From NCBI GenBank assembly GCA_964644605.1, contig CAZXWS010000039.1:1-60969 (forward strand): DNA of 60,969 bases, written 5' to 3'. Below the pieces are notes generated by a model that worked only from the letters and a program-made list of their open reading frames with translations, was not told the origin of the DNA and did no database searches. Below are positions 3,557-60,969 of this stretch, in pieces. The DNA comes from an uncultured Gammaproteobacteria bacterium (GTDB lineage: Bacteria; Patescibacteriota; Microgenomatia; UBA1406; GWC2-37-13). The position numbers and the translations under genes were made by a program. The first letter of the stretch is position 1; each line of letters starts with the position of its first letter.

Positions 3557-3909
3557 ACAAATAGGATTTGACTTTTAATGTGATTTCATTTTAGAGATAA
3601 ACGAAATCAGTTGTCAAGTCCATTTATATGTGGTTTTTAGATATATTATGAAGTTTAGAGGAAATGACTATGTTTGTTTCGATAACATCCAGGAAATAAA
3701 TAATGCTCAATTTAATAATTAAGGCGTAAGTATAGGTAATCAATTCGTAATGTACGGCATTCCTTTAAGAAATGTATTGCTTTGAAAAATTGAAGAAAAC
3801 AAAGGGGCTATATATCATGTACCACACCGTCCGTTCTATTTAAAATATAGTTTATTGCCTTCTGTAAGGCTTCTGTCATAGATGTGGACTATAATTATAC
3901 AATTAATAT

Positions 3910-35663: not shown

Positions 35664-37007
35664 TCATAGTAGTGTTGCTACTTTACGCCAAAATTCTACA
35701 ACACCATGAGGACTTAACTCATAAGTATTTATATCATCTTTTCGGCTTGCCATGTTCAAATTAAGCATTTCGTAGAATATTTTTTGGTCTAAACACCATT
35801 TAATAAAACCAGCTGCTGCAACGGGGTCATTGGGCAAAAAAATGCCGCGCCATTTTTTTATTTCCTTTTGTAAATCTTTATCAGTATCAAGAGATATATT
35901 TTTTTCTGCATAATGCCAGAGTGTTCGCTGTTCACTGACAAGAGGGATGAGATAATGCCTTCGAAGGAAATCTAAATTATCAAACTCCTGCCGTCCAACT
36001 GGTTCAGAAAAAAGCAGAATTGAGCCACCTTTTTTTTCGGGGGATATAAGTGCTTTGAATGCTTGTTCGCTCGGCTTTGTAATCTCTACCGCAATCACTT
36101 CATGAGTATAAATATTTTCATAGGAATCAATAATATCTCGATCCACCGCAGAAGTAGTAAGTTTTACAAAAGGTCGTTCATTCATTTCATATATGAAGTT
36201 TTTTGTAAAAGGCGCAGTTTTTGCCACTACATGCAGTGAAAATCTATGGCTGCGTCTATACAACGCGTCTATTAATACAGTGAAATACTGGGTACCTACT
36301 GCTGCTCCTGAAATTGGTATTACTAAATTGGTAAGTTCTGTGCTCTCAGGATCAAGTTGTCGTTTTTTGTACTCGTATTGATGCTCCGTTAAGGGTTGAG
36401 CAAGCATGGGAGACAGAGGGTAGGGGTTTACTGCAAAATCGGTGTGTTTTAGTTTTGCTTTTCTCCCGTATGCTTCAAGTGCTTTTTTTGTTTTTTCACT
36501 CGGTACACACGTCAAATCTGCTCCTGGAACGTACCACATTTTTTGCGGACTATCATCTGTGACTTGTACAACAAGAATAATTTCAATTTTTTTATCTTCA
36601 GCTAATTTATCTTTTATTGCAGCAATTTGATGTGCTAATCCGAAGTGCGTAGCAATCACTAACACTGTGGCAGGCGATTTTAGTCGTTCATCAATAAGCG
36701 TAGTTAGCTGTCCATAGAGAACCTTTGTGCGAGAGCGGAGGAAAGCTCCGTACAAAACAGCAGTGATATTTTCACCGATTCCTTTTCCTATCCATTCATA
36801 AATAGCCCGCGTAATACGATAATTACTGGCGATTCTGTGAACATAGTTTATTGAGTAATCTTGTGCTCCCAGTAGTACAGGGTTAGCACCTGATGGAAGT
36901 CCATGATAAAGAGCATTAGTTACTCGTAAATGGCCAAATCCGGCAGGTGCATAGGTAAATATAAGCAGCATCGAAGGATTGGTGAGTGCTTTACTATAAT
37001 CGTCCAT
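35664..37007 (-). CDS. Divergent GT-B glycosyltransferase, MGDG-synthase/UgtP (GT28)-like
   Basis: N-terminal FTYAPAGFGHLRVTNAL resembles the G.GH motif of MGDG_synth. C-terminal ITKPSEQ...EPVGRQEFDN resembles the K(P)GG...PGQE motif. Assigned by eye only. Confidence 0.4.
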   Translation of the reverse strand: MDDYSKALTNPSMLLIFTYAPAGFGHLRVTNALYHGLPSGANPVLLGAQDYSINYVHRIASNYRITRAIYEWIGKGIGENITAVLYGAFLRSRTKVLYGQLTTLIDERLKSPATVLVIATHFGLAHQIAAIKDKLAEDKKIEIILVVQVTDDSPQKMWYVPGADLTCVPSEKTKKALEAYGRKAKLKHTDFAVNPYPLSPMLAQPLTEHQYEYKKRQLDPESTELTNLVIPISGAAVGTQYFTVLIDALYRRSHRFSLHVVAKTAPFTKNFIYEMNERPFVKLTTSAVDRDIIDSYENIYTHEVIAVEITKPSEQAFKALISPEKKGGSILLFSEPVGRQEFDNLDFLRRHYLIPLVSEQRTLWHYAEKNISLDTDKDLQKEIKKWRGIFLPNDPVAAAGFIKWCLDQKIFYEMLNLNMASRKDDINTYELSPHGVVEFWRKVATLL

Positions 37008-41457: not shown

Positions 41458-42510
41458 ATGAAAATTATATCAAGCACTGACAAATCAGCAGTTCAACAAA
41501 CTGTAAGTATTTTACGAGCAGGAGGTCTTGTCGTCGCCCCTACTGACACCGTATATGGATTGCTTGTAGATGCAACCAATGAGCGTGCCGTAGAAAAATT
41601 GATACAGTTTAAAAGTCGTCCACCTGGTAAGGCAATATCGATATTTGTCGAAAACCTACACATGATGGATAAGTATGTGACAATTTCACCAGCGCAAAGA
41701 TCGCTGTTAGAAATATTATTACCTGGTCCGTACACTATTATCCTTGAATCAAAGCACAAGACTTCAAAGTTACTTGAATCTGAAATTGGAACTCTAGGTG
41801 TGCGTGTACCAAACTATGATTTTATAACCGATCTTGTTCATGAATTCAAAAAACCACTTACAGCAACTTCGGCAAATCTCAGCACAAAATCACCCAACTA
41901 TTCTGTAGATAGCTTTTTACAAAGTTTATCCAAGCAAAAAATGGAGTTGCTAGATTTGGTAATAGATGCAGGAAATTTACCCCATAACAAACCTTCTACT
42001 GTTGCTGATCTCACTAAACCTGAAGTGCAAATTTTACGGCAAGGTGATTTGGAGTTCAAAGAAGAAAACAAGTACAAATCAACAGTTGAAGACGAAACAA
42101 AAGTTATAGCGAAGAAATTATTAAATGATTTACTCGATGAGCGACAAACAATTGTTATAGTACTAGAAGGTGATTTAGGGGTGGGAAAAACAGTGTTTGT
42201 GAAGGGAATCGCGGAACAATTGGGAATTCATAATATAATCTCCCCGACTTACACGGTTTATTACGAATATACGCTCAGCGACATGTTGTATAAAAAATTA
42301 TATCACTTCGATTTGTATCATATAGAAAACGAAGAAGAGTTCAAATATCTTGGACTAAATAAAATTTTAAAAGAAACATCTATTATCTGTCTCGAATGGG
42401 GTGAAAAAGCAGCTTCAATTATGCCCTTACTGAAAGAAAAAGCAAAGGTAGTGTATGTGAAAATGCAGTATATTAATGAAAAAGAAAGAAAAATTATTAT
42501 AAGTACATAG
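41458..42510 (+). CDS. tsaC-tsaE: Fusion of threonylcarbamoyl-AMP synthase (TsaC/YrdC domain) and the t6A ATPase TsaE
   Basis: N-terminal GGLVVAPTDTVYGLLVDA (YrdC). C-terminal GDLGVGKTVFVKGIA..SPTYT..HFDLYH (TsaE). Confidence 0.8.
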   Translation: MKIISSTDKSAVQQTVSILRAGGLVVAPTDTVYGLLVDATNERAVEKLIQFKSRPPGKAISIFVENLHMMDKYVTISPAQRSLLEILLPGPYTIILESKHKTSKLLESEIGTLGVRVPNYDFITDLVHEFKKPLTATSANLSTKSPNYSVDSFLQSLSKQKMELLDLVIDAGNLPHNKPSTVADLTKPEVQILRQGDLEFKEENKYKSTVEDETKVIAKKLLNDLLDERQTIVIVLEGDLGVGKTVFVKGIAEQLGIHNIISPTYTVYYEYTLSDMLYKKLYHFDLYHIENEEEFKYLGLNKILKETSIICLEWGEKAASIMPLLKEKAKVVYVKMQYINEKERKIIIST

Positions 42511-42515
42511 TTGTT

Positions 42516-43577
42516 ATGAAAATACTATCAATTGATACCTCATGTGACGAAACATCCGTGGCGATAACTGAAGGAAGGAAAGTGTTATCGCATATTGAGT
42601 ATTCGCAGATTTTAACTCATAAGGAGTGGGGAGGAGTAGTACCGTCGCTCGCAAAACGGGCTCATGAAGAGAGAATTGAATGGGTAGTACTGCATACATT
42701 GCAAAGGGCGTTTGGAAAGTCAAAGAATACACTAGACACTGCAATCCAAGAAGTGGATGCAATCGCAGTGACGTATGGCCCAGGACTAGCCATAGCACTC
42801 GAAGTAGGTATCAATACAGCAAAAAATTTATCTGTACACTATCAAAAGCCTCTTATTGCAGTTAATCATATGGAAGGACACATTTACTCGTGCTTTGTAC
42901 AAAACAGTAAAGGGAATCCAGTTAGAGAGTTTGATTTTCCTTATTTAGCGTTGCTTATATCTGGAGGACATACAGAACTAGTACTGTTTAAGAGTTACTT
43001 TGATTATGAGATTATCGGACAGACAGTGGATGATGCTGCCGGGGAAGCAATAGATAAAGCAGCACGTATGTTAGGATTTAATTATCCGGGCGGTCCCGTA
43101 CTGGAACGACTAGCAGAACAAGCAGGAAATTTGGATTTTCATAATTTTCCTCGTCCGATGAAAAAATCACAGGACTTAAATTTCTCTTTTTCTGGGTTGA
43201 AAACATCATTTTATAACTATACAAATAAAATGAACAAAAACGATAGTGTTAACTCTCCTGATAAGCTATCTTCATCTTTTCAAGAAGCGGTATTTGGCTC
43301 CATACTTATAAAAACTGAGCAGGCCATCCAAACTCATAGGATTCATCGTTTGGTTGTTGGTGGGGGAGTCATTGCAAATAAATATTTGCGAAAGCGTTTG
43401 CGTCAACTTGTAAAGCCTTATAAAGGCGAAGTTCTTTTTCCGCCTTACCGGTATTTAACTGGTGATAATGCCAGTATGATTGGGGTGGTTGCCAGTATTA
43501 AAGCTTCACGAGGAATGTTCATAAAAGACATACATGAGTTAGATCGTAGTCCTCGATTATCACTAGGGTCGGGTTGA
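42516..43577 (+). CDS. tsaD: tRNA N6-adenosine threonylcarbamoyltransferase TsaD
   Basis: ILSIDTSCDETSVAI, GPGLAIAL, VNHMEGH and LISGGHTEL. Confidence 0.9.
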   Translation: MKILSIDTSCDETSVAITEGRKVLSHIEYSQILTHKEWGGVVPSLAKRAHEERIEWVVLHTLQRAFGKSKNTLDTAIQEVDAIAVTYGPGLAIALEVGINTAKNLSVHYQKPLIAVNHMEGHIYSCFVQNSKGNPVREFDFPYLALLISGGHTELVLFKSYFDYEIIGQTVDDAAGEAIDKAARMLGFNYPGGPVLERLAEQAGNLDFHNFPRPMKKSQDLNFSFSGLKTSFYNYTNKMNKNDSVNSPDKLSSSFQEAVFGSILIKTEQAIQTHRIHRLVVGGGVIANKYLRKRLRQLVKPYKGEVLFPPYRYLTGDNASMIGVVASIKASRGMFIKDIHELDRSPRLSLGSG

Positions 43578-57377: not shown

Positions 57378-58889
57378 TTAAGCAGTATTACTCTTATGTA
57401 ATGCAAGTGTAGCAATTATTATGCCGGAGAGCAACCAAAAGTAGTATGCCACTTTAGATGCTTCAAATACATCGATATATGATGCATTTAGTAATAGTCC
57501 CAGGGTGCCGAATAAAAACCCTGTGTAGAGGATAGCTGTTTTGTCTTTTTTTCTACCCGCATTAAAAACGCGTACAGATATGTTGAATATTATAAACAAA
57601 AAGATGCTAGTTCCAATTAAACCAAATTCACCCAACCATCGTAAGTAATCATTGTCCGTTGATTCAGTAATGGAGGCTGGTCCTGTTCCAAATAATGGGT
57701 TACGTTTTAACGCATTTATAGCGCGTGGCCATTCTACTTGTAAACGAGTGGCATTAGAAATATCTGCCGAAATTGTATTAACTGGTCTTAAATCAGCGGA
57801 CATTGTCGCAACTATTTGTGCAGCTTCACTGGCTGTCAGTACCCTGCCTGATTTAGTAGCATCTTTTTGTACCTGATCCAAAAGTTCTTCTTTTAGTAAC
57901 TTAGCAGTGGCCGGATTGACAGTTGGTTGCACGTCGTTCTGGATAGGAATATAAGCCCCGCCAGCAGGAAGTTCTTTAGATGAAATAAGCTGGGGCAGAA
58001 CAGTTTGTCCAGTTTTTTCGTTTACAAATACCTGTTTTATCTGGAATGTCTGGAAAAAACGGGATGTTAAATTGGTGGAAACAAATGTCAAACCAATGGT
58101 AATGAGTCCAATAATGATAAGATGTTTAAATTTGCGTGTATATAAGAGAAATGCTCCCATAGAACCAATATATGCGATAAATGAAATACGGGAAGCAGTA
58201 AGTGTCAGAGCGAAGATGGAAAGGAATGCAACTACATAGTAGAAAATATTTTTGCTGTAAAAATACATAGCAACAACAAACGGAATTAAAAGCACGAGAT
58301 AGGCAGCTAAATCATAATGTCCTCCAAAGGTAGAAGAGATTCTTGCCTCTGGAGTTAGGTACAGAAGTGCTCCTCGCGCAAATGCGGGGTTCATAGTTTG
58401 GATAGCAGGCCAGCCTAAAAATTTCTGTCCGATTCCATAAAGCGTGACTAGTAATAGAACTACAAATATCAACCGCACATAAAATAATAGGTCTTCTTTT
58501 TTCTTGACAGTTGTGAATCCGATAAAGAAGAAAATCATGTACTGCACTCTTCGACCTGAGTGAAGTAGTCCTATTTGAAAAAGCTGCTGCCTTAAGGTAT
58601 GTTGGAGAAAATAGCCTACTGCAAATGACGCAAAAACTGCTGCCCAAAAGGCTATAAAAAGTATAAGAAAGTAGCGATCTATTTTTACTTTTCCTCTTAG
58701 CAATTGAATAAAAAAAACTGCCACAACAAATCCAACATAAATATCATCAAGACGCACGGCAATGTATGTATATTCGATAAGTTTAAGAGGAAGTTTAGGG
58801 TATAGAGGAATCACGAAGATAAAAAGTGTAATTAGAATTTTGAGCAAATTATTGTCAAGCCATGTCAACCAGTTTATAAGCTTCTTCAT
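57378..58889 (-). CDS. O-antigen ligase/polymerase-like (Wzy_C) membrane protein
   Basis: Polytopic membrane protein with a large external loop, embedded in the GT cluster. The family assignment is by topology and context. Confidence 0.5.
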   Translation of the reverse strand: MKKLINWLTWLDNNLLKILITLFIFVIPLYPKLPLKLIEYTYIAVRLDDIYVGFVVAVFFIQLLRGKVKIDRYFLILFIAFWAAVFASFAVGYFLQHTLRQQLFQIGLLHSGRRVQYMIFFFIGFTTVKKKEDLLFYVRLIFVVLLLVTLYGIGQKFLGWPAIQTMNPAFARGALLYLTPEARISSTFGGHYDLAAYLVLLIPFVVAMYFYSKNIFYYVVAFLSIFALTLTASRISFIAYIGSMGAFLLYTRKFKHLIIIGLITIGLTFVSTNLTSRFFQTFQIKQVFVNEKTGQTVLPQLISSKELPAGGAYIPIQNDVQPTVNPATAKLLKEELLDQVQKDATKSGRVLTASEAAQIVATMSADLRPVNTISADISNATRLQVEWPRAINALKRNPLFGTGPASITESTDNDYLRWLGEFGLIGTSIFLFIIFNISVRVFNAGRKKDKTAILYTGFLFGTLGLLLNASYIDVFEASKVAYYFWLLSGIIIATLALHKSNTA

Positions 58890-59760
58890 ATGTTTTTATA
58901 AGGTATTGGCGCCCAGTAAGCCTTCCTAAAAGGGAGGCTAGTGATGCTTTCAATTTTAACATAACTTTAAGTAAAAACATAGAAATTTTTCCATAATGTT
59001 TCTGATAGAAGTAGAGATATCCTTTATAAACTTGAAGTATAGGAAATGTGCGTCCACCGCTGGATGCCGATCCAAGATGAATTATCTCAGCACCTGGATA
59101 AAAGAATGTTTTGAAACCATATTGTCGGGCACGATATAGTAAGTCTACCTCTTCCATATACATAAAAATCTTTTCATCAAATCCACCTAACTTTTCGTAA
59201 TATTCTTTTTTACATAAAATACACGCACCCGCTACCCAATCAACTTGTCTTGTAGTGTTCGGAGAGTATCGGGTCAGTCCCCAGTAATCACCTCTGAGAA
59301 ATAAAAAACCAAACACGACAAGCGGCGTAAAAAATGGAGCTGCAGAAGGCTGAGGAGTTTTATCTTTATTCAGAAGTTTAATCCCTAAGAAATGAACGTG
59401 ATTTTCGTTTTTAGTATAAAATTTGTACATTTTTGTAATCGCGTTATCAAGGATGAGGGTATCTGAGTTTAGTAATAGTATATATTTACCATGAGCTGAT
59501 TTGACTGCTTGATTATTGCCACGACCAAATCCGATATTTTCATTGTTTTCTATAAATATGAGATTTTCATGATTTTGTGAGTATTTTTTAAGTGCTTCTG
59601 CTGAACCATCAATTGAGGCATTATCGAGTACGATAATCTCGGTTGCGGGACTCTTTTTTTTCTTAAGAGATTCATAAATAGAGTCTAGACACTGTAATGT
59701 AATGTCTTTGGTGTTGTAAGAAAGAATGATAATTGATAAGTCAAATGTTGGGCTAGCCAT
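58855..59760 (-). CDS. Glycosyltransferase family 2
   Basis: LSIIILSYN, VLDNASIDGS and LNSDT motifs. Confidence 0.85.
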   Translation of the reverse strand: MASPTFDLSIIILSYNTKDITLQCLDSIYESLKKKKSPATEIIVLDNASIDGSAEALKKYSQNHENLIFIENNENIGFGRGNNQAVKSAHGKYILLLNSDTLILDNAITKMYKFYTKNENHVHFLGIKLLNKDKTPQPSAAPFFTPLVVFGFLFLRGDYWGLTRYSPNTTRQVDWVAGACILCKKEYYEKLGGFDEKIFMYMEEVDLLYRARQYGFKTFFYPGAEIIHLGSASSGGRTFPILQVYKGYLYFYQKHYGKISMFLLKVMLKLKASLASLLGRLTGRQYLIKTYEEAYKLVDMA

Positions 59761-59833
59761 AAGTTTATTACCGATTTATCTCCTATTATAGTATAATTTA
59801 CTGGAATTATTGACAAGTGTAATTGGTTGATTT

Positions 59834-60006
59834 GGCTGGATAGCTCAGTGGTAGAGCAATCGTTTCACCTGCCCGCAATGCCAACATAGCTCAGCGGCAG
59901 AGCAGACGTTTCATAAGCGTCAGGTCACAGGTTCGAATCCTGTTGTTGGCACAGCTTTGGCAGGCGGGTAAGCGATCGGTCGTGGGTTCGAATCCCGCTC
60001 CAGCCA
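59834..60006 (+). tRNA. Outer tRNA, exons 59834-59867 and 59969-60006. Joined it is 72 nt with loop TTCATAA (anticodon CAT; Met or Ile2-type), interrupted by a 101-nt insert that contains another tRNA
   Basis: The arms are listed below.
- Acceptor GGCTGGA / TCCAGCC.
- D arm GCTC-AGTGGTA-GAGC.
- Anticodon stem ATCGT / GCGAT.
- Variable loop CGGTC.
- T arm GTGGG-TTCGAAT-CCCGC.
- Discriminator A. Confidence 0.7.
59880..59951 (+). tRNA. tRNA-Met(CAT), elongator-like, nested inside the outer tRNA
   Basis: The arms are listed below.
- Acceptor GCCAACA / TGTTGGC.
- D arm GCTC-AGCGGCA-GAGC.
- Anticodon arm GACGT-TTCATAA-GCGTC.
- Variable loop AGGTC.
- T arm ACAGG-TTCGAAT-CCTGT.
- Discriminator A; no encoded CCA. 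Confidence 0.9.
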
Positions 60007-60027
60007 CCTTTTTTAAACACTTCTTTC

Positions 60028-60702
60028 ATGCATATATCAGAATACAAGAATATCTTCCACAATGAAGAAACTCACTTTTTTTACAGAAGCACACACGCTA
60101 TTGTCGTAAATCTTATAAAAAAATTTTTGCCGACCTCAGAAAAACTACATATTCTAGATGCAGGGTGTGGCACTGGTCGACTGGCTGTGTTACTACAACA
60201 GTTAGGTGCCGTTGAAGCAGTTGATATCAGTGGAGAAGCTATTCGGTATGCCAAAAAAAGAGGAATCGATGCTAAAAAAGCATCGATAATGAATTTACCG
60301 TTTCATGATTCTACTTTCAGTCTCGTAACATCTATCGATGTGTTATATCACCAGCATGTTCAGGACACAAAAGCTCTTAAAGAAATCCATCGTGTATTAA
60401 AAAAAAAGGGATATTTAATCATTCGAGTACCGGCAAATCCTCTGTTTTCTACATCCCATGACAGGCTGGTTCATACAAGACACCGTTACACGCAGTCTGA
60501 ACTCACTCAGAAACTAGAAGATGCCGGTTTTTTGATCGTTTATTCTACTGCTGTTCATTCAGTTCTTATACCTTTTGTGCTGATGCGAAAGTTGCAGGAA
60601 AAAATAAAAGGAAGCGCACCACACACTGCGATCACCTCAGTCAACCGATATGTAAATATCCTACTCACGGCAATATTGTTACTAGAAGTAAAGTTTTTAT
60701 AA
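60028..60702 (+). CDS. Class I SAM-dependent methyltransferase
   Basis: Motif I ILDAGCGTGR and a Methyltransf_11-like layout. Confidence 0.75.
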   Translation: MHISEYKNIFHNEETHFFYRSTHAIVVNLIKKFLPTSEKLHILDAGCGTGRLAVLLQQLGAVEAVDISGEAIRYAKKRGIDAKKASIMNLPFHDSTFSLVTSIDVLYHQHVQDTKALKEIHRVLKKKGYLIIRVPANPLFSTSHDRLVHTRHRYTQSELTQKLEDAGFLIVYSTAVHSVLIPFVLMRKLQEKIKGSAPHTAITSVNRYVNILLTAILLLEVKFL

Positions 60703-60837: not shown

Positions 60838-60969
60838 TCAGGACATTTGCAACAGATGGACAACTTCTAACGGTGTTTTAAGATCAATACCTAAGTGTGG
60901 TCTTTGCGTATTGTATTCTTTCAAAAACGCTGCAAACTGACTCCGTAAATCATCATAATCTGTGGCTCC
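60838..60969 (-). mobile_element. C-terminal end of a DDE integrase/transposase (rve core), truncated by the window edge
   Basis: The minus-strand translation from the window edge is GATDYDDLRSQFAAFLKEYNTQRPHLGIDLKTPLEVVHLLQMS*. The YN..RPH....KTP signature is present. The stop TGA is at 60838-60840. Confidence 0.65.

Follow-up and report, generated by a model that had tools for sequence, protein, structure and literature searches.

Near the end of contig CAZXWS010000039.1, whose entire 60,969 nucleotides are referred to here as the window, an intact tRNA(CAT) gene lies within the anticodon loop of a second tRNA(CAT) gene that is split between positions 35 and 36 (a nested unit of 173 nt, 59834–60006, + strand). 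We consider it probable that this unit arose at the level of DNA, through the site-specific insertion of a cassette mediated by a GC-rich palindromic element that we call E, with the inner tRNA as the working gene and the outer tRNA as a fresh relic. An earlier note on this DNA had described the nested arrangement from the letters of the sequence; all of its coordinates and sequences are correct, and both the sequence and ARAGORN bear out a tRNA inside the anticodon loop of another CAT tRNA.

The unit reads, in order, GGCTGGATAGCTCAGTGGTAGAGCAATCGTTTCA, CCTGCCCGCAAT, the inner tRNA, CAGCTTTGGCAGGCGGG and TAAGCGATCGGTCGTGGGTTCGAATCCCGCTCCAGCCA, and is built from two kinds of CAT tRNA that we name type A and type B. 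The outer gene is of type A. Its 5′ half (tRNA positions 1–35; 59834–59867, + strand) comprises the acceptor strand GGCTGGA, the D arm, the 5′ strand of the anticodon stem and TTCA, and its 3′ half (tRNA positions 36–73; 59969–60006, + strand) runs from TAA through the 3′ strand of the anticodon stem, the variable loop and the T arm to the acceptor strand TCCAGCC and the discriminator A. Joined in silico the two halves give, as the earlier note had it, a flawless 72-nt cloverleaf with the loop TTCATAA according to ARAGORN. A metagenome scan with the outer 5′ half as query returned 25 loci at which this pattern belongs to an uninterrupted type-A tRNA, and the joined outer tRNA is identical to uninterrupted metagenome tRNAs of its type at 62–68 of 72–73 positions.

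The segment inserted between the halves is 101 nt long, 72 of which are tRNA. The inner gene (59880–59951, + strand) is an intact type-B tRNA(CAT) with the acceptor strand GCCAACA and no encoded CCA; it is detected by ARAGORN, by Rfam (RF00005, 71 bits) and by a family-specific covariance model trained on relatives only (94 bits), and it is the single tRNA that ARAGORN and Rfam report across the 61-kb window. It is presumed to be a functional gene, and a tRNA of this inner type occurs on its own at the syntenic position in L342 and L344 (L numbers denote the related loci or contigs that we compared with the window). The family model also makes partial matches on the outer halves, at 59834–59874 (20.8 bits) and 59963–60006 (28 bits), while the intron mode of ARAGORN, a tool that expects introns at 37/38, returned the inner tRNA only over this region. 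Inner and outer tRNAs have the 13-nt CGTTTCATAAGCG in common.

The remainder of the insert consists of the two arms of E, whose flanks in the window start with CCTGCCCGC and finish with GGCAGGCGGG. The left arm (59868–59879, + strand) is CCTGCCCGC followed by AAT, and an identical arm is found in the cassette of L068 and in cargo-free copies of E in L018, L032, L376 and L377. The right arm (59952–59968, + strand) is CAGCTTT followed by GGCAGGCGGG, with copies in relatives; it is also the sole match of GGCNGGCNGG in the 61-kb window. The arms CCTGCC/GGCAGG (59868–59873 and 59959–59968, and likewise in the flanks of L031 and L032) are one base pair away from the type-A acceptor stem CCAGCC/GGCTGG, and the covariance model aligns them in place of acceptor strands, which would allow each outer half to form a closed structure by itself. 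The likeness may have to do with origin, with competing folds or with chance.

Recurrence of the nested locus and mobility of element E

The host is bacterial (SecA, FtsH, Lon, SufB and AlaRS are encoded in the window) and belongs, by its GT2 glycosyltransferase homologues and GTDB matches, to Candidatus Roizmanbacteria (Microgenomates) in the Candidate Phyla Radiation (CPR). Within this group the nested locus recurs, as a search of related genomes proposed by the earlier note confirms. The identical 173 nt are present in three further assemblies from different samples (L001, L004 and L006), which supports the nested junctions that the note wished to see checked for a chimera, the same architecture occurs in unrelated assemblies and metagenome-assembled genomes (MAGs) from JGI, ENA and NCBI, and with diverged sequence it occurs in at least eight other lineages from different projects and assemblers, L040 and L091 being named Roizmanbacteria MAGs. 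A conserved (T)GTATAAT box precedes these loci, which lie directly upstream of one GT2-Wzy-PMT gene cluster; the locus is therefore orthologous, and further orthologous loci were sampled via GT2 homologues.

Both nesting orders are found. Type A encloses type B (A5′[B]A3′) in the window, L068 and L369, and type B encloses type A (B5′[A]B3′) in L032/L040, L031, L345, L024/L091, L033/L034 and L016, with an intact type-A tRNA nested in the anticodon loop of type B also in L024/L028 from the metagenome scan; further nested or layered forms occur in L345, L369 and L375. In every nested locus of either order the split falls between A35 and T36. The acceptor strand of type A is invariably GGCTGGA and that of type B is variable (GCTAGGG, GTCAGTA and others), and outside the acceptor stem the two types are inseparable. 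Elsewhere the locus holds type B alone (L342, L344, L349–L358 and L371), type A alone (many of L011–L030) or no tRNA at all (L343 and L359–L368). The public scaffold of L373 carries a run of 10 N right after CGTTTCA, in the anticodon loop of a type-B tRNA upstream of GT2, and this may be an assembly break caused by an insertion polymorphism at 35|36.

Other searches returned less. A first scan of genome contigs with the outer 3′ half as query gave no match, and a second gave 66 stretches, mostly ordinary tRNAs of other anticodons (TTCAC...), among which only L040, L068 and L091 were relevant. Scans of viral contigs with the junction motifs yielded chance matches only, with no tRNA context. In Alphaproteobacteria (L073, L085 and L086 from Rhizobiales and Brucella, and L053) a tRNA 5′ half ending in ...GCGTTTCA is followed by unrelated CCAATWCTTGTCGTTGC..., which could be another interruption at the same spot or the junction of a genomic island; L085 shows no Rfam family. 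The earlier note knew of no bacterial equivalent, and our full-text literature search likewise turned up no account of one tRNA nested in another, nor of such introns or insertions in the tRNA genes of CPR bacteria.

Element E is also found without a tRNA, and in sites that have nothing to do with the anticodon loop. Cargo-free copies of 39 nt lie in the D loop of a truncated type-A fragment in L018 and within the GT2 gene of L032/L040, where E keeps the reading frame and adds 13 residues (TRLPSLGSGLSGQ) that are not in the orthologues. Copies of 37–49 nt lie in the D loop of truncated type-B fragments in L376 and L377, and the D stem of a dead type-A half in L369 contains CCTGCCTGCCGGCAGGCAGG, a perfect palindrome of 20 nt. 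At the B5′[A]B3′ loci E has the reverse-complement orientation (CCCGCCTGCC ... GCGGGCAGG), so that both orientations are seen. All insertions are 3′ of an A, and none of the five kinds of site shows a target duplication. The arms are tetranucleotide repeats, (CCYG)2CC and GG(CRGG)2, and CCTGCC(C)GC and G(C)GGCAGG form a hairpin. It is this repeat structure that allows the two helices of 5–6 bp, CCTGCC:GGCAGG and CCCGC:GCGGG, which are mutually exclusive, as the earlier note had claimed together with the flanks CCTGCCCGCAAT and CAGCTTTGGCAGGCGGG; the arms can also pair over their full length, in a third register that includes one C.A and one G.U pair. In its hairpin, its copies at unrelated sites and its filled and empty sites E agrees with palindromic mobile elements of the miniature inverted-repeat transposable element (MITE) or REP type; a target-site duplication is absent and no cognate transposase was identified.

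Empty sites are seen for both the GT2 insertion and the insertion in tRNA B. The uninterrupted type-B genes of L349–L358 provide the latter, as the intact gene of L349 and the joined outer type-B gene of L032 differ at 2 of 72 positions, and from this comparison the insert in L032 is exactly CCCGCCTGCCGAAGTACGTTA, tRNA A and CTTCGTACGGCGAGCAGG. For the order found in the window no empty type-A allele occurs among the close relatives, which have type B alone or are recombinants. L342, whose GT2 is 94% identical to that of the window, has type B alone. The recombinant L002/L005 (L002, 350–480) is L342-like on its left up to the D loop of type B and 100% window-like on its right, from the D arm of type B through the methyltransferase gene, and so carries the E right arm and the type-A 3′ half and no type-A 5′ half. 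These populations recombine, and the strain does without this type-A copy. A simple deletion of the 5′ half was rejected for L002/L005 in favour of recombination between an L342-like and a window-like genome, with the crossover in the D loop of type B. At loci that miss one half (L002, L033 and L024) no partner half was found in the DNA examined.

Across the lineages the outer gene decays. It is intact in the window, L068, L032/L040, L345 and L031 (the last with an extra ~60 nt in the T loop), and about half of the related lineages have it in truncated form or not at all: in L024/L091 it is truncated after the T loop, in L033/L034 its 3′ half is absent, in L016 its 5′ half is degenerate, in L369 the 3′ half is lost and the D stem bears the palindrome, and in L344 the intact type-B gene is followed by a T-arm relic of type A that itself holds a 23-nt hairpin. 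In L345, L375, L018, L023, L376 and L377 the remains are layered, older 5′ fragments lying upstream and older 3′ fragments downstream of an intact gene. Extra hairpin insertions are present in 6–7 of ~16 outer or fragmentary copies and in none of ~24 tRNAs that are inner or stand alone; were six insertions scattered randomly over 40 copies, all would land in outer copies with a chance of ~0.2%, a figure to be read with the fact that being intact partly defines the classes. Such a bias is what relaxed selection on the outer copies predicts.

Several smaller insertions accompany these. Other hairpin families occur in the T loops of tRNAs at 53|54, 56|57 and 57|58 (CTTGYCC...AGGR and GTCCTTCC...GGAGGA; examples are L031 ~3745–3805, L344 and L345 upstream of GT2, and L020 ~3560–3640), each laid out as ~4 nt plus a hairpin that ends at the 3′ junction, and confined to outer or fragmentary tRNA copies. 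In L376 (582–710) three tandem 41-nt repeats 3′ of the intact tRNA each hold a relic of a tRNA 3′ end (GGTCG, a hairpin and CTGCTGACA). In L023 a truncated type-A fragment (GGCTGGATAGCTC plus a hairpin) and a 26-nt hairpin, CCCGCCGAAGCCTCGGCGTAGGCGGG, abut the intact type-A gene (2582–2840 and 2408–2510), and this gene is followed by an open reading frame (ORF) that encodes a helix-turn-helix (HTH) domain. The GT2 homologue P0087 has a different insertion of 12 residues near its N-terminus (VETGLKPVSTNK, residues ~34–45), possibly a further in-frame element.

Element E is linked at this locus to a small nuclease gene. In three lineages (L018 with type A, L376 and L377 with type B) the promoter is followed by tRNA positions 1–14, E, positions 15–25, ~20 nt, a gene for a 78-aa GIY-YIG nuclease and an intact tRNA that has the same acceptor strand as the 5′ fragment; E thus lies immediately upstream of the nuclease gene, inside a duplicated tRNA 5′ fragment. 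The 78-aa family is very widespread in CPR bacteria and has the conserved C-terminus KYFKTGFGRRFLKxRI. The codons for GFGRR in L018 are GGCTTTGGCAGGCG, whose last 13 bases, GCTTTGGCAGGCG, recur in the right flank of the window. These shared letters and the recurrent adjacency are a lead to E and the nuclease belonging together, not proof of it.

Insertion into DNA weighed against splicing and other explanations

The history that we favour starts from a resident type-A tRNA(CAT) gene, into which a cassette made of a type-B tRNA(CAT) between E arms would have inserted at 35|36. The resident promoter would now transcribe the entire unit, the E arms would pair, along with a short closing helix in the relatives, and the inner tRNA would fold as a domain of its own, from which RNase P and RNase Z could free it as the working gene. 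The outer halves would then be by-products of a recently displaced gene, pristine here and presumably heading to the decay seen in sister lineages. The site next to GT2 would be a hot spot at which successive insertions, including modules of the GIY-YIG gene and E, layer tRNA copies like the skins of an onion, the newest intact copy at the centre with older 5′ fragments upstream and older 3′ fragments downstream. As to the chemistry, our guess would be a hairpin-directed or single-stranded DNA-directed insertion 3′ of an A that leaves no target duplication. Two familiar routes were considered and set aside: a crossover of the att type by a serine or tyrosine recombinase, as the two junctions have no shared core or dinucleotide, and DDE transposition, as there is no target duplication. 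The alternative that the earlier note had offered, a pseudogene produced by insertion of a paralogous tRNA, comes closer to the evidence than its preferred reading and is too simple, given that the insertions are recurrent, site-specific and element-mediated and occur in both orders; of the usual signs of a pseudogene, disruption and decay are seen in relatives and the outer gene of the window is without point defects.

Several observations weigh against an insertion that simply displaced the outer gene. The outer tRNA is flawless in the window, L068, L032/L040 and L345, and in L031 too save for the T-loop insertion. The stems of the outer type-B genes are fully compensated across lineages (GCTAGGG/CCCTAGC, GTCAGTA/TACTGAC and GTCGGCA/TGTCGAC, in acceptor and anticodon stems), a pattern that selection for a working split gene could leave, provided that the insertion is old, and variants of the flanks group roughly with the outer type-B genes. 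The helix that closes the inner tRNA covaries (GAAG/CTTC, TTAG/CTAA and AAAG/CTTT), and there is therefore selection at the level of RNA or single-stranded DNA. Types A and B may, to judge from an acceptor stem that is constant in A and variable in B, be different isoacceptors such as elongator Met and Ile2; if they are distinct and single-copy, insertion would be lethal without splicing or a prior duplication, and neither a second intact type-A gene in the 61-kb window nor a second intact member of the family on the contigs examined was found. Neither type has the features of an initiator (C1xA72 and an anticodon stem with three G-C pairs), and comparison by eye with E. coli and B. subtilis sequences was not decisive between Met and Ile2. 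No transposase or insertion mechanism was identified, and the insertion reading does not account for a tRNA at the apex of E or for the two nesting orders. We tried to turn one order into the other, A5′[B]A3′ into B5′[A]B3′ and vice versa, by homologous recombination, inversion or tandem duplication acting on the 13-nt anticodon stem-loop that both tRNAs have, and no product matched.

The strongest rival, which we regard as unlikely, is that the insert is a true RNA intron. The outer tRNA would be functional, an unknown endonuclease would remove the E arms at 35|36 and an RtcB-type ligase would join the halves, either after RNase P and RNase Z have released the inner tRNA or independently of them. 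Such a protein-dependent intron, lacking a bulge-helix-bulge (BHB), would account for outer halves that are perfect in four of the lineages named above (the window, L068, L032/L040 and L345), for compensated stems among the outer type-B genes, for a junction that is exact in every lineage and for ends that pair next to a covarying closing helix. It would also account for the identity of 70/72 between the joined outer type-B tRNA of L032 and the intact gene of L349, two loci whose adjacent GT2 proteins have only 54% identity. In CPR bacteria genomes are small and tRNA genes usually single-copy, and an unspliced insertion into an essential gene should then be lethal. Against splicing, the locus shows no BHB and no known ribozyme or intron family. 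The orientation of E poses a further difficulty, as its occurrence in both orientations speaks against a strand-specific RNA signal, and E is present besides in a protein gene, in frame and translated, as well as in dead tRNA fragments. Roughly one outer gene in two is truncated, junk insertions fall in outer copies only, and no tRNA splicing endonuclease or ligase gene was found among the window ORFs scanned. The preferred reading of the earlier note, in which a bacterial tRNA is split or trans-spliced and its halves are joined again, meets the same opposition from outer decay, junk insertions and the copies of E in a protein gene and in dead tRNAs.

The predicted structure of the locus bears on this directly. 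The 173 nt are predicted to fold into a compact, nested structure (−73.7 kcal/mol) with the inner cloverleaf intact. In the minimum free energy (MFE) fold the anticodon stem, the pairs U32-A38, U33-A37 and A35-U36 and the E arms form one continuous helix, and according to both the MFE fold and the pair probabilities the two junctions directly face each other (A35-U36, then C-G, C-G and U.G); the modelled locus resembles a hairpin loop with a palindrome placed in its middle. A BHB consists of two 3-nt bulges separated by 4 bp, or a relaxed version of this, at the boundaries of exon and intron, and we rejected it since drawing it by hand failed in both orientations and the MFE fold is continuous, which agrees with the note's own failure to find a canonical one. 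To our knowledge no RNA-processing enzyme cuts junctions of this blunt-opposite geometry. A group I intron has a P3–P9 core of about 200 nt or more and a 5′ exon-terminal U that pairs with G in P1; here the insert is only 101 nt long, the Rfam scan of the insert and locus shows no family other than tRNA and the 5′ exon ends in A, not U, so the note was right to exclude group I and group II introns. Split tRNAs of the Nanoarchaeum type, whose halves lie at separate loci with their own promoters and are joined via complementary leader and trailer sequences, were also rejected, as a single promoter-like box precedes both of the present halves, which are on one strand with 101 nt between them.

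Less likely again is an exapted scaffold, in which the outer halves and E arms, no longer a tRNA, would be kept as a structured leader and trailer that stabilise the precursor, insulate the inner tRNA or aid its processing or transcription termination. The covariation of the closing helix, the compact predicted fold around an intact inner cloverleaf and the T-run that follows the outer 3′ half would all be accommodated. Against it, many lineages express the inner types with no scaffold of this kind (type B alone in L342, L344, L349 and L371; type A alone in L011–L015 and others) and the scaffold decays freely. We hold a reversible DNA switch to be very improbable. Here the cassette would be excised precisely from DNA, as in hairpin-directed single-stranded DNA transposons, and the population would alternate between intact outer and nested states, in keeping with seamless insertions free of target duplication and with empty and filled sites among relatives; against it stand the lack of an empty type-A allele in the close relatives of the window strain, the lack of an identified transposase and the fact that a 101-bp circle is unlikely as a double-stranded excision intermediate. 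A mis-join of two similar tRNA genes during assembly, which the shared 13-nt CGTTTCATAAGCG might invite and of which the N run at exactly this spot in L373 is reminiscent, is refuted by the three further independent assemblies and the diverged nested forms described above.

Should insertion into DNA be the correct reading, the locus would represent an undescribed route by which selfish DNA colonises an essential gene while bringing a whole replacement tRNA, and a single locus would keep a fossil record of repeated invasion and decay. For CPR bacteria, the GC-rich palindromic insertions, found in tRNA loops and, in frame, in one protein gene, would then be a new family, and the link of this family to a very widespread 78-aa GIY-YIG nuclease would be new as well. 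Since tRNA finders report the inner gene only, tRNA inventories and arguments from missing tRNAs need care. If splicing should prove true instead, Bacteria would have their first protein-dependent, non-group-I tRNA intron, and for the first time a tRNA would be known within a tRNA intron; this would bear on how split and intron-containing tRNA genes arose. Two CAU tRNAs would come from a single transcript, and E would be a mobile, protein-spliced bacterial intron of tRNA loops.

Neighbourhood and comparison with known systems

The synteny anchor before the tRNA locus is a GT2 glycosyltransferase gene (58855–59760, − strand; Pfam Glycos_transf_2), which adjoins the tRNA locus in L016, L031, L032, L033, L068, L342–L349 and L369–L377 as well. 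Between the two lies a −10-like TATAAT box (59792–59797, + strand), the presumed promoter of the whole nested unit, and the (T)GTATAAT / TAGTATAAT box is kept at the matching place in syntenic loci; a two-hexamer scan gave no full sigma-70 match on the + strand. A T-run 3′ of the outer 3′ half (60009–60014, + strand) is, on its letters alone, a possible transcript end, and a terminator scan gave no canonical site on the + strand. Downstream, where the region differs between strains, the first gene encodes an S-adenosylmethionine (SAM)-dependent methyltransferase (60028–60702, + strand; Pfam) that is 100% identical in L001–L010 and is replaced by other genes in the close relatives L342 and L343. 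The 3′ end of an insertion sequence (IS)-type transposase gene (HTH and rve_3 domains; 60838–60969, − strand) runs off the end of the window, and the gene is complete in L002 and L003 (297 aa). Further away the window encodes a Sua5/TsaC-TsaE fusion and, adjacent to it, TsaD (41458–43577, + strand), makers of t6A37, a modification that we would expect on both CAU tRNAs. Two large ORFs have no Pfam or NCBIfam match (893 aa, 260–2941, − strand; 447 aa, 35664–37007, − strand).

Among described systems the disrupted tRNAs of archaea (BHB introns at non-canonical positions, with multiple introns in Thermoproteales, the split genes of Nanoarchaeum equitans and Caldivirga, and the Haloferax tRNA-Trp intron with its box C/D sRNA) resemble the present locus in that the tRNA is broken at or close to its anticodon loop, the halves are bordered by complementary GC-rich sequences and a functional RNA lies within the insert, and the relatives here have further small insertions in D and T loops. 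In contrast to these systems the present host is a bacterium, there is no BHB, the junction is at 35|36, both halves lie in cis, an EndA-type endonuclease is neither known nor was seen, and the outer genes often decay. The group I introns of bacteria (in cyanobacterial tRNA-Leu(UAA) and tRNA-fMet, Azoarcus tRNA-Ile(CAU) and Agrobacterium tRNA-Arg(CCU)) likewise interrupt anticodon loops, including those of CAU tRNAs, and genes of the homing-endonuclease type occur in the relatives here; they differ from the 101-nt insert, 72 nt of it tRNA, which has no group I core and follows a 5′ exon that ends in A.

For element E itself the nearest comparisons are selfish palindromic repeats that enter genes: the Rickettsia palindromic elements (RPE), the REP/REPIN sequences with their RAYT transposases and the GC clusters of yeast mitochondrial DNA. 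Like them E is a short GC-rich palindrome in an AT-rich genome, with an in-frame copy in GT2 that is translated, further copies in RNA genes and occurrence in both orientations; its layout of a CYYG tetranucleotide followed by a hairpin resembles REP. Unlike these repeats E has a complete tRNA gene at its apex, targets tRNA loops and was seen in low copy number, no RAYT or other transposase was identified, and E is linked instead to a 78-aa GIY-YIG nuclease. Finally, the integrative elements that target tRNA genes and bring a copy of the tRNA segment they displace, the free-standing GIY-YIG homing endonucleases of tRNA clusters such as SegB of phage T4, and the Goddard-Burt cycle of invasion, decay and loss share with this locus that a conserved, essential tRNA is hit, a replacement is brought along and fragments decay, and the GIY-YIG gene at this locus in L018, L376 and L377 has its parallel in the tRNA-cluster nuclease SegB. 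The present case departs from the integrative elements in that a whole tRNA sits in the anticodon loop as part of a 101-bp insert, with no integrase and no att duplication, and in that the acceptor stem of the inner tRNA differs from that of the outer one.

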